From: Candidatus Sphingomonas colombiensis
GTDB taxonomy: Bacteria; Pseudomonadota; Alphaproteobacteria; Sphingomonadales; Sphingomonadaceae
Length of the DNA stretch: 64,000 nt
Assembly: GCA_029202845.1 (NCBI GenBank)
Contig: CP119315.1
Location: 2,005,759-2,069,758 of the forward strand
Direction of reading: 5' to 3'
This document shows positions 7,376 through 55,766 of the stretch, one piece after another; the first letter of the stretch is position 1; the number at the start of each line of letters is the position of its first letter. The notes under the pieces are model-generated. The model saw only the letters and a list, made by a program, of their open reading frames with translations, ran no database searches and was not told the origin of the DNA. The position numbers and the translations under genes were made by a program.

Positions 7376-8590
7376 CTATTCGATTTGCGGAATACTGCTT
7401 CCGCTTTGGCCGGCATCGAGAATGTCGAGGAAATGGCGTTGATTTGCCGTGGGCTGCCAGTCCGCGCGCGTGGTCACGCCGATAATGCGCTCGGTCGATG
7501 GCAACGCCGCCGGCACCCTGGCGAGCAGCCCGGCGCGCAGCTCCAGCGCGATCTGATCCGGGGAAACCAATGTCAGGAAATCGGAATCGAGCAATATGCC
7601 CCGGATCGCCATCACCGATCCGCATTCCACCGGGGCCGGCGGGTAGGGCAGGCCGGTGCCCTCGAATAACCGTTCCCAATGATGGCGCAGCGGCGATCCC
7701 GCGCGCCCGACGATCCACGGAAAGCGGCAAAGATCGGATGCCGGTACATCATGTTCGCCAGCGAGCGGATGCCCGGCGCGCGCCGCGATCATCAGCCGGT
7801 CGACGAACAGCGCGCGTTGCGTGAAATCGGGCGGGCAGGGGTCGCGCAGCGCACCGATCATCAGGTCGATCCGCCCGTCGCGCAACAGCTCTGAAAGTTC
7901 GGCGTAAGAGCCTTCGACGATGTCGATGTGGCTGGCCGGCTGGGCGCGGGCGAAGGTGGCGACCGCTGTGGGCAGCAGCACCGCGCGGCACAGCGGCATC
8001 GCCCCGATCGCGAGGTGCGATCCGGTCGCGCCGGCCTGTGCCTCCTCCAGCGCGGCCTGCAGATCGGCGGCGACGAGCCGGAACTGCCGCGCCAGTCGTC
8101 TGCCGTGCGTGGTCAGCGCGACGCCGCGTCCCTGCCGCTCGGCCAGCGGGGTGTCGCACAGCCCTTCCAGTTCGCGCACGGCGCGGTGCAGCGCGGGTTG
8201 CGACAGGCCGGTCGCGCGCGCCGCGCCGACGAAGCTGCCCGCTTCGGCAAGGTTGAGCAGCGCGCGCACCTGCGTCGCGGTCAACAGATTTTCCGGGCGC
8301 TCGAACGCGCGCCGTCCGCCGCGCCCCAGCGGGCGCATCGCGCGGGCCAGCCGGTCATGCGCGGCGTGGACGCGGGGGATCACGCGCGCGCCCGCCGGGG
8401 TCGCGCGCATCCCGTCCGGGAAGCGCTCGAACAGCAGCGCGCCGAAGCGTTCCTCCAGCTTCGCCAGCCCCTGCGCGAGCGCCGGTTGCGACAGCCCGAT
8501 CGCCTCTGCCGCCGCGCTCATGCTGCCGCGTTCCGCGATCAGCGGCAGCGCGCGCAAATGGCGCAGGTTGAGGTCGAACGGCTGGGTCAT
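7376..8590 (-). CDS. ligR: LysR-family regulator with two tandem HTH domains (LigR/GalR-type)
   Basis: Two HTH copies (GSMSAAAEAIGLSQPAL and GSFVGAARATGLSQPAL) plus a substrate-binding domain. Divergent from ligK. Confidence 0.8.
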   Translation of the reverse strand: MTQPFDLNLRHLRALPLIAERGSMSAAAEAIGLSQPALAQGLAKLEERFGALLFERFPDGMRATPAGARVIPRVHAAHDRLARAMRPLGRGGRRAFERPENLLTATQVRALLNLAEAGSFVGAARATGLSQPALHRAVRELEGLCDTPLAERQGRGVALTTHGRRLARQFRLVAADLQAALEEAQAGATGSHLAIGAMPLCRAVLLPTAVATFARAQPASHIDIVEGSYAELSELLRDGRIDLMIGALRDPCPPDFTQRALFVDRLMIAARAGHPLAGEHDVPASDLCRFPWIVGRAGSPLRHHWERLFEGTGLPYPPAPVECGSVMAIRGILLDSDFLTLVSPDQIALELRAGLLARVPAALPSTERIIGVTTRADWQPTANQRHFLDILDAGQSGSSIPQIE

Positions 8591-8604
8591 CGCGTCGATG
8601 ATAT

Positions 8605-8619
8605 ATAGCATAAACTTAT
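8605..8619. promoter_or_regulatory. Candidate LysR T-N11-A box in the ligR/ligK divergent promoter
   Basis: ATAGCATAAACTTAT: ATA...TAT dyad with T-N11-A spacing, about 80 bp upstream of ligK. Confidence 0.55.
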
Positions 8620-8697
8620 CGCCGGTCCGTAATTCGGAATTGTGCTTTCTCGGAAGCTCACCCACGCTTGGCGCCTCGCGATTGATGGAGATTGATA

Positions 8698-9364
8698 ATG
8701 GCAGGCGTGGTCGTGACCGGCGTGGAGCGCCCCCCACTCGCCATCGTGGATGGCCTCGCCGCCTGTGGCGTCGCCACCGTGCATGAGGCGCAGGGGCGCA
8801 CCGGGCTGATGGCCAGCTACATGCGCCCGATCTATCCGCGCGCCCGGATCGCGGGCACCGCGGTCACGATTTCCGCGCCGCCGGGCGATAACTGGATGTT
8901 ACATGTCGCGATCGAACAGTTGCGCGAAGGCGATGTCCTGGTGCTCGCTCCCACCAGCCCCTGCGAAGACGGCTATTTCGGAGACCTCCTCGCCACCTCC
9001 GCAATGGCCCGCCACTGCCGCGCCCTGATCATTGACGCCGGGGTGCGCGACGTTCGCGACCTGACCGAGATGGGCTTTCCAGTGTGGTCGAAGGCGGTCT
9101 TCGCGCAAGGAACGGTCAAGGCGACGTTGGGCTCGGTCAACGTGCCGGTGGTATGCGCCGGCGCGCTGGTGAATCCCGGCGATGTGGTGATCGCCGACGA
9201 TGACGGCGTGTGCGTGGTGCCGCGCGCAAATGCGGCGTCCGTGCTCGAAAAGGCTCGGGCGCGCGAGGCGAATGAAGAGGCCAAGCGCAAGCGGCTCGCG
9301 GCAGGTGAGCTGGGCCTCGACATCTACGACATGCGCGGCAAGCTGGAGCAGATGGGGCTGAAAT

Positions 9365-41976: not shown

Positions 41977-42513
41977 TTACTTGCTGCGTTCGACCTGTTC
42001 GAAATCCAGCTCGACCGGGGTGGCGCGGCCGAAGATCGACACGGAGACCTTGACCTTCGACTTGTCGAAATCGAGCTCTTCGACGGTGCCGTTGAAGCTC
42101 GCGAACGGGCCGTCGAGCACCTTCACCGAATCGCCGATCTCGTAATCGATCTTCACCGAATGCTTCGGTGCGGCGGCGGCCTCGTCCTTCGAATTGAGCA
42201 TCCGCGCGGCTTCTGCGTCACTGATCGCCTGCGGCTTGCCCGACGAACCGAGGAAGCCGGTCACGCGTGGCGTGTTCTTCACCAGGTGATAGACGTCGTC
42301 GTTCATGCTGAGCTTGGCCAGCACGTAGCCGGGCATGAACTTGCGCTCGACCGCCACCTTCTTGCCGCGACGCGCCTCGGTCACGGTTTCGGTCGGCACC
42401 TCGATCTGCTCCACGAGCTGCTCGAGGCCGAGGCGCGCGGCCTCGGTCAGGATCGTATCGCGGACCTTGCCCTCGAAACCGGAATAAGCGTGGATGATGT
42501 ACCAGCGCGCCAT
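41977..42513 (-). CDS. nusG: Transcription termination/antitermination protein NusG
   Basis: WYIIHAYSGFE, FMPGYV, KOW GDSVKVLDGPFASF, FGRATPVEL. Confidence 0.97.
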   Translation of the reverse strand: MARWYIIHAYSGFEGKVRDTILTEAARLGLEQLVEQIEVPTETVTEARRGKKVAVERKFMPGYVLAKLSMNDDVYHLVKNTPRVTGFLGSSGKPQAISDAEAARMLNSKDEAAAAPKHSVKIDYEIGDSVKVLDGPFASFNGTVEELDFDKSKVKVSVSIFGRATPVELDFEQVERSK

Positions 42514-45980: not shown

Positions 45981-48581
45981 GTGGCAAGTTTCAAGAACCG
46001 CACGTTGGTTATGCTTCTTGCTTCGGCCGCGCTGTCCAGCCCCGCCCTTGCTCAGACGACGGATCAACCGGCCACCCGTGCATCCAATGATGCGATGAGC
46101 GACATCATCGTCACCGCCCAGAAGCGCGATGAGAATATTCAGACCGTTCCGATTTCAATCCAGGCCTTGTCAACGCGCAAGCTGGATCAGCTCAATATCT
46201 CGAATTTCAACGAATATACTCAGCTTCTGCCATCGGTCGCCTTCCAGACTTCACAGCCGGGCGTGACGACTGTTTACATGCGCGGCGTCGCCTCCGGGGG
46301 CGACGGCAATCACTCCGGTTCGCTGCCTTCGGTCGGCAGCTATCTCGACGAACAGCCGGTGACGACGATCGGCGGCACCCTCGATATCCATATCTACGAC
46401 GTCGCCCGCATCGAAAGCCTCTCCGGGCCGCAGGGCACGCTGTACGGCGCGTCGAGCGAGGCTGGCACGATCCGTATCATCACCAACAAGCCTGATACCG
46501 CTGGCTTTTACGGCCGCATCGATGGCGAATTGAACACTGTTCACAAGGGCGGCGTCGGCGGCAAGCTGGAAGGGATGATCAACACGCCCTTCTCCGAAAA
46601 CGTCGCGCTGCGCGTGGTCGGCTTCTACCAGAAGGACGCCGGTTATATCGACAACGTCGCCGGTACGCGGACCTTCTGCGGTTCGCCGACCTATGATGAA
46701 AACGGGGATATCAACGGCTGCATCAAGAACGGGATCACCGTCAACAACAATGCGCTGGTAAAGAAGGATTATAACGACACCGAAACCTGGGGCGGCCGCG
46801 CCGCGCTGAAGATTGATCTCGACAACAATTGGACGGTGACGCCGACAGTACTTTACCAGGAGCAGCGCAGCCACGGCAGCTATGGCTATGATCCGTCGCT
46901 CGGCGATCTCAAGGTGCAGCATTTCCTGCCGGAATATCGCCGCGACCGCTTCATTCAGGGCGCGCTGACGATCGAGGGCAAGGTCGGCAATTGGGACATT
47001 ACCTATGCCGGCGCCTATCTCGATCGCCGCGATACGCAGTCCAGCGATTATACCGATTACGCCGAAGCCTATGATTCGCTTTACCAATCGCACGGCGGCC
47101 TCGCGAATTATTTCTATTATCAGGATGCCCTCGGCAACACGATCGCCCCGCTCCAGCGCGTGCTCGGCACCGATCATTTCAAGAAAATGAGCCAGGAGTT
47201 CCGCGTTGCTTCGCCGAGCACGGAGCGGCTTCGTATCGTCGCGGGCGCTTTCTATCAGCGCCAGTCGAACCTGATTCATCAGGATTATCAGATTGCCGGG
47301 CTGGCACCCAATCTGTCGGTCAACGGCCATCCGGGCACCCTGTGGCTCACCCAACAGCATCGCGTTGACAAGGACTATGCGATGTTCGGCGAGGCAAGCT
47401 TCGACATTTTGCCAACGCTGACCGCCACGGCGGGCGCACGCGCCTATATCTACGACAATTCGCTACTTGGTTTCTTCGGCTTCGGGCGCAATCCGGATGC
47501 TGGCGACGGCGGCATTCCTTACACGGCGACCCCGTATAACGCGGCGGGAAGCTCTCGCACCGGCGTGGCGGGCTGTTATCTCACCAACGGGCAGACGTTG
47601 CGCGATACCGTGGGTGCCGGGCAGGTGCCGCCACCGTTCGCGCCGGCCGCGGTTGCCGGTGGCCCGTGCACCAACCTCGCCAATATCTCCGGTACCAACC
47701 TCATTCCCAAGCGGACGCAGGGGCAGGGGGCGACTTATAAATTCAACCTGACGTGGAAGCCGAGCGATCAGGTGATGCTCTATGCCACATGGTCGCGCGG
47801 TTTCCGCCCCGGCGGCATCAACCGGCGCGGCGACGTGCGGGATTATGCGCCCGACTTCCTGACCAATTACGAGGTCGGGTGGAAAACGACGTTGCTCGGC
47901 GGGATGCTGCGCTTCAACGGCGCGGTCTATCAGCAGAATTGGGATGCGTTCCAATTCTCCTTCCTTGGTCAGAACAGCTTCACGGTAATCGAGAACGGGC
48001 CGAGCGCGCGTATCCGTGGCGTGGAGATGGACGCGAACCTGTCGACCGGACCGCTCACGTTGACGGCTGCGGGGTCTTATACGGACGCCCGGACGCGCCA
48101 GAATCTGTGTCTTCAGGCCGATCCGACCTTCACCTGCTCCGGGTTGACTGAGGGGGGTGATCAAAACCTTATTTCGGCGCCCAAGGGCACGCGCCTGCCG
48201 ATAACGCCCGAGTTCAAAATCACGGGAACGGCGCGATATACCGTTCCGCTGGGCGATAGCGTGAAGGGCTATGTCCAGGCGCTGGTGTCGCATCAAAGTT
48301 CGGCGTCGTCGGATATTCGGACCGCGGTTTATCAAACGGGCACCGGCTTGATCATCAATCCCGCCGCGGAGCTGGGACGGCTGCGCGCCTATACCACCGG
48401 CAATCTCGCGCTCGGCGCGGAAATCGGCAGCAATTATACGATCGAGGTTTTTGCGCAAAATCTGTGGGATGTGCGCGGCGAAATCTCACGTTTCCAGGAA
48501 TGCGGGTCGTGCGGACAACGGCCCTATATCGTGCCGATCACGCCGCGGACCATCGGTATCCGCGCGGGCGCGAAGTTCTAG
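45981..48581 (+). CDS. TonB-dependent receptor
   Basis: DIIVTAQKRDE, IESLSGPQGTLYG, SRGFRPGG, C-terminal PRTIGIRAGAKF. Confidence 0.92.
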   Translation: MASFKNRTLVMLLASAALSSPALAQTTDQPATRASNDAMSDIIVTAQKRDENIQTVPISIQALSTRKLDQLNISNFNEYTQLLPSVAFQTSQPGVTTVYMRGVASGGDGNHSGSLPSVGSYLDEQPVTTIGGTLDIHIYDVARIESLSGPQGTLYGASSEAGTIRIITNKPDTAGFYGRIDGELNTVHKGGVGGKLEGMINTPFSENVALRVVGFYQKDAGYIDNVAGTRTFCGSPTYDENGDINGCIKNGITVNNNALVKKDYNDTETWGGRAALKIDLDNNWTVTPTVLYQEQRSHGSYGYDPSLGDLKVQHFLPEYRRDRFIQGALTIEGKVGNWDITYAGAYLDRRDTQSSDYTDYAEAYDSLYQSHGGLANYFYYQDALGNTIAPLQRVLGTDHFKKMSQEFRVASPSTERLRIVAGAFYQRQSNLIHQDYQIAGLAPNLSVNGHPGTLWLTQQHRVDKDYAMFGEASFDILPTLTATAGARAYIYDNSLLGFFGFGRNPDAGDGGIPYTATPYNAAGSSRTGVAGCYLTNGQTLRDTVGAGQVPPPFAPAAVAGGPCTNLANISGTNLIPKRTQGQGATYKFNLTWKPSDQVMLYATWSRGFRPGGINRRGDVRDYAPDFLTNYEVGWKTTLLGGMLRFNGAVYQQNWDAFQFSFLGQNSFTVIENGPSARIRGVEMDANLSTGPLTLTAAGSYTDARTRQNLCLQADPTFTCSGLTEGGDQNLISAPKGTRLPITPEFKITGTARYTVPLGDSVKGYVQALVSHQSSASSDIRTAVYQTGTGLIINPAAELGRLRAYTTGNLALGAEIGSNYTIEVFAQNLWDVRGEISRFQECGSCGQRPYIVPITPRTIGIRAGAKF

Positions 48582-48908
48582 GGGAGGAGCCTGGCGTATC
48601 TGGATGCGCCACGGTTTCAGGGGAAGGACGGGGTGGCCACGCCCCGTCCTTTTCCGTTGGGGCTCCGTTGATCAAGGGCTGTGGGGGCGACAATTTCGCG
48701 TTGTCGACTGCCGGGTACGCACTGGCCTGAAAGGTGGCGGCTGGCGGATCACCAGCTTATTCTAGCTCTATCGAAGACTCGCGGTCTCGAAGTGTGTGCC
48801 GCCCCTTCTCAGCCTCGACCTTGCGCACCGGCCTGCGCGACCGTTGTAGGCAAAGGAAAAGGCGCCGGGTTCAATCGGCGCCTTCCGAGTTTCTTACCTG
48901 TCAGGCTG

Positions 48909-49433
48909 TCAGGCGAACCGCACTTTGACCGCGCGGCGGCGCATCGCCGCGCCGACCAGGCCGAAGCCCGCGATCATCATCGCCCAGGTGGCCGGCTCGG
49001 GAACGGCGCCCGCGACGGCGGAAACGGAGCCGGAAGTCAGATAGCGATTATAGCCCTTCTCGGTTTCGCTGGTGGTCTGGTTCAGCGAGGTGCCGGTCGA
49101 TGTGAGCGGGCTGTTGAAAAATACGTTGAGTTTCGCGTTCGAGAACGTCGCCGACAGGCCCTGAGCGGCGTTCCAGAACAGCGCGGTCGCGTTGCCGAAC
49201 GTATAGGTAGTCCCGGTGTAGCTGCCATAGGGCCAGCCGCTGTTGGTGGACGACGTGATCGAGAAGCCGATAAGCGTCGCGAGGTCGTCGCTCGTGGTGA
49301 ACGTGCCGGACAGCGTTCCGCCGTCGACGAGCTTCACATTGTCGAGATTGAACACCGCCGCAGCTGAAGCGGGAGCTGCCGTGCCGAGCATGGCAACGGT
49401 CGAAAGGGCTGCGGCAACTACCAACTTACGCAT
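48909..49433 (-). CDS. PEPxxWA-CTERM sorting domain surface protein
   Basis: Signal peptide; C-terminus VPEPATWAMMIAGFGLVGAAMRRR. Confidence 0.92.
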   Translation of the reverse strand: MRKLVVAAALSTVAMLGTAAPASAAAVFNLDNVKLVDGGTLSGTFTTSDDLATLIGFSITSSTNSGWPYGSYTGTTYTFGNATALFWNAAQGLSATFSNAKLNVFFNSPLTSTGTSLNQTTSETEKGYNRYLTSGSVSAVAGAVPEPATWAMMIAGFGLVGAAMRRRAVKVRFA

Positions 49434-49679
49434 TTAAAATCCCCGTGTTTTCCAGCTAGCGCCAGCGACGAATCGCGTCGTCTCGTTCGATCGTGGTCCG
49501 TAGAGGCAAGGTTTGGCGACCAACAGTCCGTTAACCACGAGTTTTCCGCCGCGTCCCAAATCGGAACAGTCATTTCCGCGCTGACTGGAAACGAGGATTC
49601 GCAGCTCTTCCCGCGACGGATGTGGGCGGGCGGCCAACGCGCCGTGCCATGCTGGCTGCAAATCGATTTCTAGAGAAGG

Positions 49680-49696
49680 TGGCAGGGGATCTCGGA
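49680..49696. repeat. Distal att core: copy of the tRNA-Trp 3' end (16/17 identical)
   Basis: tggcaggggatctcgga versus tggcaggggagctcgga at 55690. Confidence 0.85.
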
Positions 49697-49771
49697 GACG
49701 TTGACAGGGGTGGTTTAAGGCGTTGGTTTTGCATAATTTCAGTGATTTTCAAAGCGTTGTATCCGACGATG

Positions 49772-49797
49772 CCTATCCAACAAACCTATCCTACACG
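49772..49797. repeat. Integrase arm-type repeat, left copy
   Basis: CCTATCCAACAAACCTATCCTACACG; 24/26 match to 55615-55640. Confidence 0.75.
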
Positions 49798-49816
49798 TCC
49801 TTGAAAGCTCCCTAAA

Positions 49817-51282
49817 ATGGCAAGCCTGAAGCTCCAACATCGCCAATACTGGGCCACCGTGCGCGCGCCGAAGGGCCTTCAGGATCATTACGACGACAAG
49901 AAGCACCTAATACCGAAACCTTCACACTTCTGACGTGAAGGTGGCGAGGGTTGAGGCCGCCGCATGGGAAGCGATGCTGCGGATGGAGTGGCAGGAGAAG
50001 CAGGGCCGGTCCGTCAGCGACCCCGGCGCACTCCGCCGCATCTACACAGATGCTACGCCGGCAGGCGGCCGAGGGTGCGTTCGTTGTCCATCAGGGCGAT
50101 GAGGACCCGGTTGAGGCTGGAATTGAACATGAGCTGGGGAAGATGGCCGACGCCGATCCTGACCCCGATGGCGAGCTTACCGCTAACGCCGCGATCCGCG
50201 TTGCCGCCCTTCAGGATGCGCTGCGGGAGGTGAGGGGGCAGAAGGTGCCTCAACGGAAGGAGCTTGAGCCAGCCTTTAGCGAGGTGGTGTCGGATTACAT
50301 GACCCAATGGCGCACCCAGCGCGGCCTCAAGGAAACCAACACGGAGCAGCAGAAGGACGCCACGTTCCGCCTGTTCAAGGGCTTCTGGAACGATAAACCT
50401 ATTCGGGGCGTCCGCGACGCCGACGCTTCCCGCTTTCACGATGCGCTTCGCCGTACCGACCGCGACTGGGCGCGCGCCAACGGCGCCAAGGAGATGGCAT
50501 GGGCTAAGGTTCAGGAGCTGTTTGGGGGCAGCGACAACGGATTGGCCGACGCCACCATGAACCGCCATCTGGCGACCCTGAAGGGCCTTTGGGATTGGGC
50601 CGCGAGGCGCGGTCATTGCTCTGGTCACAACCCGTTTGATGGTTTCCACCGGAAGCTGCGAACCGGCGTGAACGTGCTGGGCTATCTGGCATGGGAGAAG
50701 GAGGAGCTTGGCGCGCTGTTCGCCAAGCCGCCGAAGCGGGCGGACATTCGGGAGGTTATCCTAGTCGGGATGTACTCCGGGATGCGCCTTGACGAGATTG
50801 CGTCGCTCCGGTGGGAGCAGCTTCGGGAGGGCGAGGGCGTCCGGTATTTCCAAGTGGAGGACGCGAAGACCCCAGCCGGGAACCGACAGGTGCCCCTCCA
50901 CCCGTCGCTGGCGTGGCTCTGGGACCGCAAGCCGGCCGGTGGCACGGGACAAGTATGGACCACCTTCAACGGGGAGGGGCCGGGGAAGAAAGCGGGCGCC
51001 GACGCCAGCAAGGAGTTTTCTCGCTTCAAGTCTGCTCGCGGCTTCAAGGATCGCCGCAAGGTGTTCCATTCGTTCCGCAAGAACGTCACGCGGATCATGG
51101 AGAGGGCCACCGTGCCGGAGAACGAATGGGCGCAGGTGTTCGGCCATGAGAAGGGGTTCACCTACGGGCGTTACAATCCCGACGGGATCACGTTGGAGCG
51201 CAAGCGGGATATTATCGAGCTGATCGAATATCCCGGCGTGACTTTGCCGGCACCGGCGCGGCCCTCAAGCGATGCAGGATAA
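49817..51282 (+). pseudogene. int: Tyrosine recombinase/integrase with DUF6538-like N-terminus; two +1 frameshifts near 49910 and 50048 as assembled
   Basis: Catalytic residues intact (SGMRLDE, AKT, FHSFRK, FGH...Y). The N-terminus YWATVRAPKGLQ...NLHTSDVKVAR lies in two other frames. Confidence 0.88.
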
Positions 51283-52834
51283 TCCCGTCATTTCCCGCCC
51301 CACAGGCACGATAGCCAAATCCAATGACTCCTTATCCTCCATCCCGATAATCAGCGCCGAAGCGGCTTCTTTGGCGCCTTTAGGCCACTTCCCGAACTCC
51401 GACCGGCGGCGCGAGTTGGAGAACAGCCGCCCAGTCCGTTGGGATCGTGTAACGACGCATCAAGGTGCGGCAGGGGCTATCGCTGGGCTGGTCGATGCGA
51501 TGGTGGCGTGTGAGGATAGGAAACGCGCACGGCGGGCCGACGCCATGGAGCGCGTCCGGGCGGCCATGGCGGCGCTGACGCTCGACCTGTTCGCTTGCGC
51601 CGCCGCCACCCCGTCCCGGTTCATTGCGTATTCCCGCGACCGCAATGCATACCGGGCGAGCCGCTATCGCAACGCGGCTATCACCTTCACCGCCGCCACC
51701 GACGTTGTCGACTTCCTCGAATGCAACGGCTGGGCGGAAGGCGCAGGGGCTATCAGAGCAGGGGCGAGGCCGGACGTGTCATTGGCCGCCGGTCCCGTCT
51801 GCGCGCCACCGCAAAGCTGGTCGAGCATTTCGCGGCGGCAGGGCTGACGATCCACGACCTATCGTTCGATCCGGTTGCAGAGGTGGTCCGGTTGAAGCGC
51901 CGGGTCATAGTCGGGCTGGCGCAGGTCAACACGCTGGCGGAATATGAGGACGATGAGACCACGCGGACGATGCGTTCCGACCTCCAGCGCCTCAATGGAC
52001 TCCTTCGGGACACGCGCGTCGACCTTAAAGACGTCCCGCCGGGGAATGACGGGATCGATGGCGATGCGTTCGATGACGGTGCCGATGATGACGACCGGCC
52101 GGAAGCCGCCGACCACACCGCCATCCGCCTCCATCGGGTATTCAATGACGGCCGGTTTGATCGTGGCGGCCGGTTCTACGGCGGGTGGTGGATGGCGCTG
52201 CCGAGCCATCGTCGTGCCGCCGTACTGCTCGATGGCGAGGTGACGGTCGAACTGGATTATTGCGCCCTCCATCCCCGGCTCTGTTACGCGCTCTCCCGAC
52301 TGGACTGGCCGGCTGATGCCGATCCTTACGCGCTGCCCGCCGCGCCCCACGTAGCCCGTAGCGTCACCAAGGCGGCCTTCACGCGCCTCCTCAACGTCAG
52401 TGCTGGCGTTACCCCCGCGTGCCCCCAAAGGCATCCCGAAGCGGCTCTGGCGGGAAGCGCTGGCGGGGGTGCAGGAGTTGCATAGCGCAATCGCGGGCTG
52501 GTTCGGTGCCGGCCGGGGCATGGAATTGCAGCGGATCGACAGCGCCATCGCATCCGTCGTTCTCGACAGCCTCGCTTATCGGGGCATTCCCTGCTTGCCG
52601 ATCCATGACAGCTTCATCGTCCCAGCTTCGAAGGAGTTGGCGTTGGGCGAGTCGATGTACATGGCCTTCAGGGGGCAGATGGAGCATTTTGGGGGGCGGA
52701 AGGCATGGCCTGCGATTTCCGGCTGGTCATCGCCGGCGGTGGAAGCGAAGGTAATGCGGTCGATGGACCCGGACTGGACACCAGCCCTCGCACCATCGGC
52801 AGGGCTGGAGGAAGTGGGGGCGAGGGAGCCTTAA
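51272..52834 (+). pseudogene. Compact PolA/T7-RNAP-superfamily polymerase-like protein (~520 aa when two frameshifts near 51745 and 52412 are corrected)
   Basis: FDRGGRFY (52159), ELDY (52249), RSVTK (52357) and IHDSF (52601) occur in the canonical order across ORFs 51272, 51595 and 52400. Confidence 0.7.
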
Positions 52835-52914
52835 GGTACACCCCAAATACCATCACTAAGAGCCTTAAGCTTAGCCGCTTGCCGTCCGACCATATCCGTC
52901 GCAGCATCGCGGCT

Positions 52915-53391
52915 ATGCCTACAGATGCGCGGCGACTACGCCTGATCCTGTTTCACGCCCAGAGCGGCTTCTGTGCCGGATGTGGCAACAAGATACGCAG
53001 CAAGCCGGGTCGGTCCAACGACCCGCTCGCGCCAACCTTCGACCACGTGTGCCCGCGCTCCAAGGGCGGCAAAAGCTTAGTGACGAATGGGCTATTGAAG
53101 CATCGCCGCTGTAACGCACAACGTGGCGACCGCCCTCCGACCGGCTGCGACCGTCTATGGCAGATAGTGGTATCTGCGCGGCTGAAGCACGCAAAAAGCC
53201 AAGCGCTGCCCGAGTTCTACGCGGAGCGGGATCGCGTACGTCGGGAGGAGCTGCGAGCGGTTCGGGCTGCGATCATAGAAGCCGGGCGGACGGTCGAGGG
53301 ACGTGACGGCGTCAGCTATCGGCTATGGGGTTTCGTGCGCCTGTCACCGCGATGTGAGGAGGGGCCTGCACTGCTCCCAAGTTCGTCGTAG
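52915..53391 (+). CDS. HNH endonuclease
   Basis: CAGC...TFDHVCPRSKGG...NG..KHRRCNAQRG. Confidence 0.82.
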   Translation: MPTDARRLRLILFHAQSGFCAGCGNKIRSKPGRSNDPLAPTFDHVCPRSKGGKSLVTNGLLKHRRCNAQRGDRPPTGCDRLWQIVVSARLKHAKSQALPEFYAERDRVRREELRAVRAAIIEAGRTVEGRDGVSYRLWGFVRLSPRCEEGPALLPSSS

Positions 53392-53417
53392 CCACGAAGA
53401 TCGCCTTCGATACCGCA

Positions 53418-53738
53418 GTGATCTCCATCGACCGCGAGGGTGTCATCATGATCGACGCGCGGCAGCTTCATGGGTGGCTGGGCGTCCGAGATTACTTCCA
53501 TCAGTGGGTGAAGCGTCGGGCGGAGGAATATGGGCTCGAGGACGGGACGGACTTTTGCACGAGCGTTTGCAAAACCGGCGGATGCTCCCGCACCGACTAC
53601 CTCCTCACCATCGACATGGCGAAGGAACTGTCGACGGTCGAGCGCACCGAACGTGGCCAATTAGTGCTCCCCCTCGGAGAGGGAATCGGCTTCGGACCAG
53701 TTTCGGCCCTAGCTGACCCGATAGCCCACACTCTTTGA
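53418..53738 (+). CDS. AntA/AntB-type phage antirepressor (possibly C-terminally truncated)
   Basis: IDARQLHGWLGV..YFHQWVKRRAEEYGL..DF...DYLLTIDMAKEL..VERTERG. Confidence 0.8.
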   Translation: MISIDREGVIMIDARQLHGWLGVRDYFHQWVKRRAEEYGLEDGTDFCTSVCKTGGCSRTDYLLTIDMAKELSTVERTERGQLVLPLGEGIGFGPVSALADPIAHTL

Positions 53739-53910
53739 TTAGAGCGCACTCTCGGAGAGAGAGCCCAATTAGGCCGCATCTTGTAACTGGGCCGCATCAT
53801 TGGGGGAGAAATCCGCCTCGCTCCATCATTCCTCAAACCCCGAATACGCCACGCCGCCGGATCGCCGTTCCTGGCGTCATCGCGCCGCCGTGCCGCGAGT
53901 AGGAGAACCC

Positions 53911-54156
53911 TTGAACAACCCACGCCGCTCCCGCGCTTCCGCAATTAATGAGAAGTGCAAAGCCTGTATCTGCGATCCGTATGTCGCGGGGACATGGCGC
54001 GAGCAGCTCGCCGCATGCCCCTCCGCCAATTGTCCGCTGTTCGAGGTGCGGCCGGTCCCGCGATCTTGCATCGTGAACGGAGTTTGCGGCCCCGCCGCGA
54101 TCAATGCCGTCAGGATGAAGCTCGATATGATCGACCGCCGCTGCGCCGCCGCCTGA
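53911..54156 (+). CDS. Small Cys-rich (putative Zn-binding) protein
   Basis: TTG start with AGGAG 5 nt upstream; AINEKCKAC...W...CPSANCPLFEVRP. Confidence 0.65.
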   Translation: MNNPRRSRASAINEKCKACICDPYVAGTWREQLAACPSANCPLFEVRPVPRSCIVNGVCGPAAINAVRMKLDMIDRRCAAA

Positions 54157-54821
54157 TGGTCGCGATGCCGGCTTAATCCGGTCATCGCCAGCCACGGAGC
54201 GACGTTGGAGGACAGGGACCTATCGGGGCATCCTCGTCTCCATCGTCGCTCTGTGGTCTGGAAATGCGCTTAAATCCCGCATCGGGCCCCTTCGATGCCC
54301 CGAACGTCACCTCCAGTTCCCGCAGGGTGGAAATGGTATCCCCGCTGCTAGCAGGCGAAGCTCCGCCAGTCGTTCTATCTGGCGGATGGCCGGCGCTATT
54401 GCTGCTGCTACGCTGTCGCCGGTTGGGCGGTATCAAGCGGGCCGTGGCAGACTTAGGGTGGCAATCGCGGCCCGTTATATTTGGTGCAAATTTCCGAAGC
54501 GGGTTATCGTAGGGGCCGCGCGCCGATTTCCCCCCTTATGGGGTGGCGGTGGAGCGATGGCGCGATGGCTCGGAGCCTACTTCCGGGATCACCGAAGGGC
54601 GCCAGTGTCGCCATCAATCCGATTGCCGGAAACAGGTCAACGCGTTCGAGGCGCGCGGTCTGTGCCTGGTACACTGTCGGCCTCGCTGTCAAACGACGCA
54701 GAGGCGGCGCGGCTCGACCGGAGCTTTCCGCCACTCGCGTTTGCTCTCGGCCTCCTTCACCGTGCAGCGAATGCGCCGGCAGCTCCAGTGCAATGCGAAC
54801 CCGCTGCGTGCGTGCGCCCCT

Positions 54822-54915
54822 TGTATCGGAAACGACCGTTTTCGAGCCTGCCGGAAATGCTGTATCGGAAACTAGCTTGACAACCATTTCGATCCACCCT
54901 TAGAAACGATACAGC
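54822..54915. promoter_or_regulatory. Candidate res site / resolvase promoter
   Basis: TGTATCGGAAAC direct repeats at 54822 and 54861; GCTGTATCG (54859) / CGATACAGC (54907) inverted pair; directly upstream of the resolvase. Confidence 0.6.
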
Positions 54916-54941
54916 TTTTCGTTACAACGGGATCACGCCTC

Positions 54942-55520
54942 ATGGCTCGCACCTTCGCCTATTGCCGCGTCAGCACAGCGGACCAGACCACCGACAATCA
55001 GGTGCGGGAGATTGCCGCCGCCGGTTTCGCGGTCGAGCCTAAACGCGTTGTCGAGGAGACGGTCTCGGGTTCGGTGGCTGCTATGGAGCGCAAGGGCTTC
55101 GCCCGCCTGATCGACCGCATGGAGTCCGGCGACGTCCTCATCGTCACCAAGCTAGACCGGCTGGGCCGCAATGCGATGGATGTACGTGCCACCGTCGAAC
55201 GCTTGGCGGCAGATGGGGTCCGGGTGCATTGCCTCGCCCTCGGGGGTGTGGACCTCACCAGCGCTGCCGGAAAGATGACGATGGGCGTTCTGTCCGCCGT
55301 CGCGGAGTTCGAGCGCGACCTATTGATCGAGCGCACCCAGTCGGGGCTATCTCGGGCTAAGGCCGAAGGGAAGGCGTTGGGCCGCCCCTCCGCGCTCTCA
55401 AAGGAGCAGCAGGAGACCGTAAAGGCACGGAGGGCCGATGGGGTGTCGCTGGGGGCGCTGGCGAACGAATATGGCGTGAGTCGCGCCGCGATCCAGCGGG
55501 TGGAGAAGCGGGCGGGTTAG
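54942..55520 (+). CDS. Serine resolvase/invertase (small serine recombinase with C-terminal HTH)
   Basis: YCRVSTADQ catalytic Ser, KLDRLGRN, AEFERDLLIERT, GRP, HTH. Confidence 0.95.
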   Translation: MARTFAYCRVSTADQTTDNQVREIAAAGFAVEPKRVVEETVSGSVAAMERKGFARLIDRMESGDVLIVTKLDRLGRNAMDVRATVERLAADGVRVHCLALGGVDLTSAAGKMTMGVLSAVAEFERDLLIERTQSGLSRAKAEGKALGRPSALSKEQQETVKARRADGVSLGALANEYGVSRAAIQRVEKRAG

Positions 55521-55614
55521 ATTACTCTCGGGCGGTCGACGCCCTGCTTTTTTTGTTCAGCCCTAGAGCGGCGGCGGACATCTGGTGGGGTCGCGGCAGA
55601 CGGAGGAGCCCGAA

Positions 55615-55640
55615 CCTATCCAGCAAACCTATCCAACACG
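55615..55640. repeat. Integrase arm-type repeat, right copy
   Basis: CCTATCCAGCAAACCTATCCAACACG. Confidence 0.75.
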
Positions 55641-55689
55641 GGGCGGTTTTTAGGCTCTATCATGTTGAGATTGTTCAATTTTCTGGAAG

Positions 55690-55766
55690 TGGCAGGGGAG
55701 CTCGGATTCGAACCGAGGGCCTTCGGTTTTGGAGACCGACGCTCTAACCAGCTGAGCTACACCCCT
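55690..55766 (-). tRNA. trnW: tRNA-Trp (CCA)
   Basis: Reverse complement AGGGGTGTAGCTCAGCTGGTTAGAGCGTCGGTCTCCAAAACCGAAGGCCCTCGGTTCGAATCCGAGCTCCCCTGCCA folds as a 77-nt cloverleaf with a CCA anticodon and encoded CCA end. Confidence 0.97.

Follow-up and report, generated by a model that had tools for sequence, protein, structure and literature searches.

Evidence for a decaying TV-Pol-class element inserted at the 3' end of a tRNA-Trp gene in Candidatus Sphingomonas colombiensis

We have analysed a stretch of 64,000 nucleotides (nt) of DNA from Candidatus Sphingomonas colombiensis (contig CP119315.1, positions 2,005,759 to 2,069,758; hereafter the window), in which a small integrative element lies against the 3' end of a tRNA-Trp gene. 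An earlier sequence-only reading had taken this element for a working minimal replicon with a possible tie to a helper phage. The explanation that we favour, and to which we assign a probability of roughly 80%, is that it is a 6,010-base pair (bp) element of the TV-Pol class, a polymerase-bearing class described in 2008, which was inserted at the tRNA-Trp 3' end by a DUF6538-type tyrosine integrase and of which this copy is most likely fixed and decaying. Its core module consists of an integrase with arm-type sites, a compact TV-Pol (about 460-520 amino acids; aa) and a small serine resolvase with a res-like site. For annotation of this genome, the locus would accordingly be entered as a dead TV-Pol island at tRNA-Trp, and not as an active satellite or replicon.

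The ends of the element are marked by the following features, in which att denotes an attachment site.

55690-55766, - strand: tRNA-Trp(CCA), the integration target, found with ARAGORN and Rfam
55689-55706, no strand: attR core, overlapping the tRNA-Trp 3' end; GTGGCAGGGGAGCTCGGA, the last 17 nt of tRNA-Trp plus one downstream base
49679-49696, no strand: attL core, a partial copy of the tRNA-Trp 3' end; GTGGCAGGGGATCTCGGA, 17/18 identical to GTGGCAGGGGAGCTCGGA
49772-49797, + strand: two tandem arm-type repeats CCTATCCWRCA with 13-bp spacing, 5' of the integrase gene; exact copies at 49772 and 49785
55615-55640, + strand: two tandem arm-type repeats CCTATCCWRCA at the tRNA-proximal end; exact copies at 55615 and 55628

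The inserted unit, measured from the distal 18-nt repeat to tRNA-Trp, is 6,010 bp long. Searching the 64-kb window for the att core with up to 3 mismatches returned just these 2 matches, as against 0.15 expected, and no shuffled sequence gave two. The cores differ at one position, T at 49690 and G at 55700, and the simplest explanation would be that attP and attB differed there, on the right of the crossover point. The 4 exact copies of CCTATCCWRCA are all in one orientation and just inside the two element ends, and no other exact copy occurs in the window; joined through the core, these repeats would form a classical attP of ~200 bp, with arms on both sides, placed directly 5' of the integrase gene.

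The sequence-only reading had held that a duplication of the tRNA-Trp 3' end bounds the element, and had proposed that empty sites be sought at tRNA-Trp in related genomes. Besides the 17/18 copy and the arm-type repeats, such empty sites were found in two species of the same genus, G080 and G098, in which the 3' end of tRNA-Trp and an orthologue of the PEP-CTERM gene are ~210 bp apart, with no insert. The chromosomal side of attL, AGAAGG followed by TGGCAGGGG, aligns with GGAAGG followed by TGGCAGGGG in G080 and G098, but the corresponding attR side does not match, which shows that the 6,010-bp unit was inserted cleanly. A larger composite island was considered and rejected: the 7 kb adjoining attL on its left carry ordinary genes (for a TPR-sulfotransferase, an Nramp transporter, a TonB-dependent receptor and a PEP-CTERM protein), and the PEP-CTERM gene is the one that adjoins tRNA-Trp in G080 and G098. 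No further copy of the tRNA-Trp 3' end was found in the 13 kb between tRNA-Trp and secE-nusG, and Rfam gave no match besides the tRNA.

Six coding regions were observed in the element, all on the + strand. The three that make up the putative core are listed here, together with two features that flank the last of them.

49817-51282, + strand: tyrosine integrase pseudogene, with a DUF6538 N-terminal domain and Phage_integrase (phrog_1), from Pfam and PHROGs
51272-52834, + strand: TV-Pol-type compact PolA/T7 RNA polymerase (RNAP)-like polymerase pseudogene in three frames, with phrog_4756 in two open reading frames (ORFs) and a family profile match
54822-54926, no strand: res-like region directly 5' of the recombinase gene, with 5-6 TGTATCGRAAA-type motifs in both orientations, plus TTGACA
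54942-55520, + strand: small serine recombinase, Resolvase + HTH_7, 192 aa, apparently intact, from Pfam and PHROGs
55530-55552, + strand: terminator-like hairpin and T-run, 3' of the recombinase gene

The sequence-only reading described six co-oriented genes in a unit lacking capsid, terminase, relaxase and type IV secretion system (T4SS) genes. Comparison of the nine element ORFs with Pfam and PHROGs likewise gave no match to any of these, or to other phage structural genes, and neither a helicase nor a single-stranded DNA-binding (SSB) domain was found in the element with the same two collections. The orientation and the domains given for the six genes held, but the integrase and polymerase genes proved not to be intact ORFs, since each carries two frameshifts.

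The polymerase region is made up of three overlapping ORFs, two of which match phrog_4756 (function unassigned) at successive profile positions. This was the sole family match; searches of the polymerase against Pfam, NCBIfam, PADLOC and PDB sequences gave none. Homologues are single proteins of 430-500 aa without a Pfam domain. In an alignment of 57 homologues, GGRFY (its Arg being R247 in P0001, the closest intact homologue of the window polymerase and the source of our structural model), the E/D of motif A (D275, VELDF/Y), and R309 and K313 of motif B (RxxxK) were invariant, and D392 (HDSF, motif C) was nearly so; the motifs GGRFYGGWW, VELDY, RxxxK (RSVTK) and IHDSF can still be read in the window copy. 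At the steric-gate position of PolA motif A, the family consensus has His, not Glu. In the AlphaFold2 (AF2) model of P0001 (pLDDT 93), GGRFY lies on strand E245-249, and the best Foldseek matches in PDB were Taq, Bst, apicoplast and T7 family-A DNA polymerases and mitochondrial RNAPs (probability ~1; TM 0.25-0.35), while the Foldseek viral library gave full-length matches to uncharacterised 400-450-aa phage proteins (TM 0.56-0.71). The model and the motifs support the view that the element encodes a polymerase-superfamily protein (PolA/T7-RNAP) of its own. In a separate observation, 33 large phages (90-145 kb; Vibrio, Aeromonas, Pseudoalteromonas, Shewanella) were seen to encode uncharacterised 400-450-aa proteins that match the TV-Pol palm by sequence, examples being Aeromonas phage 4L372D (87364-88023) and Vibrio phage PWH3a-P1; some match the whole model by fold (TM <=0.71).

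The serine recombinase is 80% identical to a 192-aa protein of the closest relative, L012, where the element is located at tRNA-Leu, and the res-like stretch upstream of it (about 105-120 bp) shows ~72% nt identity in L012, L018, L020 and L071. Single motifs of the TGTATCGRAAA type are not above chance in the whole window (17 found vs 12.8 expected); it is by their clustering and conservation that the region looks like a candidate resolvase site, as the sequence-only reading, which had paired the small serine recombinase with a res site, supposed. A scan for promoters and terminators gave nothing above chance, except for the hairpin 3' of the recombinase gene.

The polymerase profile matched 11,230 clusters of proteins grouped at 50% identity. 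Among 185,579 species genomes it matched 432 loci, most of them in Alphaproteobacteria, and it was present in 9 of 121 genomes of the window's genus; the family is large, yet it has no Pfam, NCBIfam or PADLOC model. On plasmids it was matched in 3 of 72,556 records, all of them large replicons, and on this count we rejected the reading of the protein as a plasmid replicase. We then considered 84 loci fetched with 10-kb flanks, which bound the element sizes that could be detected. In 35 of them a tRNA gene stands on one side of the polymerase gene, and an exact repeat of the 3' end of that tRNA, 17 nt or longer, on the other. Every repeat of this kind that was found encloses the polymerase gene, and further tRNAs in the same loci that do not flank the element have no repeat. 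Many different tRNAs serve as targets, and the 35 att-bounded relatives measure 4.6-14.1 kb (median 9.8 kb), so that the small size of the window element, to which the sequence-only reading had drawn attention, is normal for its family.

Clustering of ORFs from 36 elements (the 35 att-bounded relatives and the window copy) placed the TV-Pol cluster in 36/36, the main tyrosine integrase cluster in 31/36 and the small serine recombinase cluster in 22/36; an HsdM cluster was present in 11/35 relatives and not in the window copy. Leaving aside a short unannotated cluster (10 elements) and a single artefact from an antisense ORF, other clusters were found in at most 7 elements each, and no phage structural, helicase or SSB genes were among the clusters common to the 36 elements. 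The polymerase gene usually adjoins the integrase gene in this set. Cargo at the loci of individual relatives includes type I restriction-modification (RM) systems, a methylase with Vsr, TIR genes and CorA. Erythrobacter fulvus sf7 carries at tRNA-Pro a 5.96-kb element (L025, 8173-14151) in which TV-Pol is one ORF, the integrase ORF is full length and a serine recombinase is matched; this element is close to a minimal version of the family.

At one further locus (L011; G007:C2:189000-208900), ~12 kb of metabolic cargo are bracketed by a related integrase, with 51% identity at the aa level, and a related resolvase, with 70% at the nt level. The cargo comprises a xanthine-dehydrogenase-type molybdoenzyme, two aldo-keto reductases, a CMD/cupin protein and LysR. 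The 19.9 kb fetched contained neither TV-Pol nor a tRNA. The bracket of integrase and resolvase can therefore exist without the polymerase, and we rejected this locus as a larger parent of the window element; it is a different island with a similar bracket.

These comparisons bear on the suggestion that the element was left behind by deletions in an ordinary prophage or in a far larger island. AntA-domain and HNH genes, both of which the element carries, are common in prophages, and large phages of Vibrio and Aeromonas encode distant homologues of the polymerase. Yet the element retains its two att ends, each with its set of arm-type sites, the relatives are complete att-bounded units of 4.6-14 kb with no phage structural gene among their common clusters, and the empty sites show a clean 6-kb insertion. 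We therefore rejected a remnant origin, the chance of which we consider negligible, and in this respect the sequence-only reading, which had proposed an att-bounded unit, was right.

Two genes of the TV-Pol-class element in the window are broken by frameshifts. The integrase start at 49817 (MASLKLQ...) resembles that of a relative, L021 (MSLKLRY...; 49.6% identical), and frameshifts near 49908-49914 and 50030-50046, within the first ~80 codons, split DUF6538, leaving 49951-51282 as the longest surviving ORF. When the frames are joined, the N-terminus scores above the Pfam threshold for DUF6538 (28.7 bits), in a match that crosses the first junction. Residues 2-30 and 75-473 of the L021 integrase align directly to two window frames, and residues 31-74 align to the third frame weakly, in a read-through alignment that 13 of 500 shuffles scored as well; the junctions, HLI/RNLHTSD and LRRIYT/QMLRRQAAEG, follow the L021 homologue, with the middle frame segment weakly supported. 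The polymerase frameshifts lie in a G-run (51746-51750) and a C-run (52411-52415). A tblastn comparison of P0001 with the window gave three high-scoring segment pairs (HSPs), in frames +1/+3/+1, and the family profile matched the genome in three abutting pieces (4-119, 119-348, 342-462) and nowhere else. The polymerase is a single ORF in 35/35 att-bounded relatives.

Sequencing error was examined as the cause of these frameshifts and rejected. Of the 58 kb outside the element, 48.5 kb are covered by ORFs that are 150 aa or longer and have coding-like GC3 (G+C content at third codon positions), and no break was detected in them; the six overlapping same-strand ORF pairs checked in the flanks are distinct genes, 11 of their 12 ORFs having a Pfam domain of their own and one having no match. 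Moreover, a Logan contig from SRR23613471 was 100% identical to window positions 47942-55718 over 7,777 bp, with no gaps. For these reasons, and because the polymerase is one ORF in the 35 relatives, the frameshifts are unlikely to be assembly errors. This contig (SRR23613471_7848) ends at window position 55718, inside tRNA-Trp and 12 nt past the att core, at what may be a graph branch (for example a junction variant) or a point of low coverage. Since the integrase and polymerase frames have both been lost, the window copy would be stuck and decaying; it is probably immobile, even as the recombinase, HNH and AntA frames are still open. The sequence-only reading had the element excise and replicate as a circle with its own polymerase. 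Its polymerase-superfamily protein is borne out by the AF2 model and the Foldseek matches, but this copy, with its frameshifts, cannot work as proposed.

Three further genes, which we regard as accessories to the integrase, polymerase and resolvase core, lie between the polymerase and the recombinase.

52915-53391, + strand: HNH endonuclease-domain protein, ORF open from 52705 (Pfam, PHROGs)
53418-53738, + strand: small AntA-domain protein, 106 aa (Pfam, PHROGs)
53800-54156, + strand: Cys-rich ORF (CxxC...CxxxxC), 62% to L012, 53% to L018 and 50% to L017

The Cys-rich ORF gave no match in Pfam or PHROGs. The AntA gene matches L012 over ~120 nt (~40 codons) at 82% nt identity, was detected by tblastn in 2 of the 84 fetched loci, and is absent from the gene clusters common to the 36 elements.

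AntA is the gene through which the sequence-only reading had linked the element to a helper phage. Extended to take in the frameshifts, that reading would see a working minimal integrative replicon or satellite, with AntA tying its induction to a helper phage and with the frameshifts explained as assembly errors, or as bypassed by slippage, or as tolerated because truncated products are enough. The good preservation of the att core and arm-type sites, the open resolvase, HNH and AntA ORFs, the position of two frameshifts in G and C runs, and the legibility of the polymerase catalytic motifs are all as it would have them. It has nevertheless to contend with 4 frame breaks in ~3 kb as against none detected across 48.5 kb of flank ORFs, with an independent Logan assembly that is identical base for base, and with a polymerase that is one ORF in every bounded relative. 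Also, AntA is not common to the family, and hallmarks of satellites (primase-helicase or rep genes, functions for capsid-size or packaging redirection, small terminase, AlpA/Stl-type regulators) found no Pfam, PHROG or PADLOC match in the element. We consider a working replicon or satellite very improbable, and the helper-phage link, which was drawn from AntA, is not supported.

For intact relatives of the TV-Pol-class element, we envisage the following cycle. The integrase would excise the element as a circle, which TV-Pol would prime or copy; the resolvase would reduce multimers to monomers at res, and the integrase would then reinsert the element at a tRNA 3' end, with cargo, often RM systems, travelling along. 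Excision, episomal replication by TV-Pol and multimer resolution are inferred here, as is the loss of mobility in the window copy.

Possibly, the polymerase has another task. It might serve in repair synthesis during recombination, provide a primer or transcript for transfer, or act in defence alongside RM, in which case the resolvase would resolve cointegrates or bring about inversion, and not plasmid-like resolution of multimers. The core has no helicase, SSB or initiator and no iteron-type origin, the family is all but missing from plasmids, the bracket in G007 travels with its metabolic cargo without TV-Pol, and His at the steric-gate position allows for ribonucleotide use; each of these would suit a non-replicative role. 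However, the polymerase is the one gene that all elements of the set have, and it usually adjoins the integrase gene, and no PADLOC model matches it. A resolvase with a res site beside a polymerase is, moreover, the classical signature of a replicating circle. A related enzyme, CCPol-MP, which belongs to an integrative element, has been proven to be a primase (PMC7581432). On balance we hold a non-replicative polymerase to be unlikely, if somewhat less so than a working satellite.

It should be noted that several observations weigh against a decaying, replicative TV-Pol element as we propose it. Membership of the TV-Pol class is a fit to the published description in motifs, context and taxa, and not a profile match to the published alignment. 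The window element is without a helicase or SSB partner such as accompanies CCPol or the D5-linked TV-Pols. From the near-absence of the family from plasmid records, it follows that stable episomal replication is not its normal state. As to decay, 2 of the 4 frameshifts are in homopolymer runs, which are the usual place for sequencing errors, and the sequencing platform of SRR23613471 was not established; also, a truncated integrase that starts 3' of the frameshifts could retain some activity.

With regard to the surroundings of the locus, most species of the genus have a GGDEF/EAL gene, tRNA-Trp, secE and nusG in that order, within a few hundred bp (~350 bp in G020), whereas in this genome nusG (41977-42513) is 13 kb from tRNA-Trp. 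What lies 3' of tRNA-Trp varies from one species of the genus to another, so that this end of the tRNA looks like a place of repeated variation. Elsewhere in the window, a 453-aa ORF (7376-8737, - strand) has two separate HTH_1 (LysR-type) stretches followed by one LysR_substrate domain, which may reflect an over-extended start, a fusion or a duplicated N-terminus.

The gene combination, which the sequence-only reading could not place in any named class, fits the mobile elements described computationally with the TV-Pol family by Iyer, Abhiman and Aravind (2008, Biol Direct 3:39; PMC2579912). TV-Pols are minimal PolA/T7-RNAP-like enzymes of 400-600 aa with a beta-hairpin Arg, two metal-binding Asp residues in an RRM-like palm and RxxxK in the fingers; a subset with an extra N-terminal domain has a lambda-type integrase, a gamma-delta-type resolvase and RM operons as neighbours, especially in Alphaproteobacteria, and a Brucella element combines TV-Pol, a resolvase and a Bro-N/KilA-C protein (PMC2579912). 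Some TV-Pols are D5-linked, and named members of the family include those of Loktanella, Brucella and Sputnik V13 (PMC2579912). The enzymes were predicted to be primase-polymerases of replicative mobile elements, and the elements were treated as replicative transposons, tRNA genes going unmentioned (PMC2579912). The window element and its relatives share with this description the minimal polymerase motifs, an extra N-terminal domain, the resolvase, the lambda-type integrase, the occurrence in Alphaproteobacteria and the association with RM, and the Brucella Bro-N/KilA-C protein is functionally akin to AntA in the window; members of the polymerase family occur in alpha proteobacterium BAL199, Rhodobacteraceae HTCC2083, Loktanella and Sulfitobacter, which overlap with the taxa of that report. 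In contrast to it, the 35 relatives and the window copy are islands at tRNA 3' ends with defined repeats, to which the window copy adds arm-type sites, and the window copy is pseudogenised. The 2008 prediction thereby gains an anatomy that can be tested: exact att sites at many tRNAs, a three-gene core, a res-like site, a size of 4.6-14 kb and frequent RM cargo.

Other systems are alike in part. Phage satellites (P4-like, PICI, cfPICI and PLE) are set apart from the window element by their hallmark genes, in place of which it has an AntA domain alone. With Tn3/gamma-delta it shares a small serine recombinase (Resolvase + HTH_7) located behind short repeated motifs that overlap a promoter-like TTGACA, but it is without a DDE transposase. 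The CCPol-MP-Cch2 module of SCCmec also belongs to an integrative element and joins a truncated A-family-type polymerase acting in priming with serine recombination, CCPol-MP having been shown experimentally to be a PolA-type primase (PMC7581432, PMC10061031). There, however, CCPol is accompanied by a small SSB-like partner and a helicase, and large serine recombinases act at orfX, whereas the window element has no helicase or SSB partner, has a tyrosine integrase at a tRNA, and encodes a polymerase for which no sequence similarity to PDB polymerases was detected.

Pipolins (PMC5695915, PMC11551731) resemble these elements in being small and often at tRNAs, with direct repeats, a DNA polymerase of their own, tyrosine recombinases and defence cargo (RM), but their polymerase is a primer-independent family-B enzyme (piPolB), as against the PolA/T7-like TV-Pol fold found here. 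It is tempting to propose, although we would not quite give it even odds, that the core of integrase, TV-Pol and resolvase represents a very large class of tRNA-targeting, self-priming replicative islands, a PolA-superfamily counterpart of pipolins that would act as a defence-gene shuttle of Alphaproteobacteria, with a His-gated polymerase that starts chains de novo without a helicase. In summary, the TV-Pol elements are an experimentally unstudied but already known class, of which the window element is a new, decayed member.

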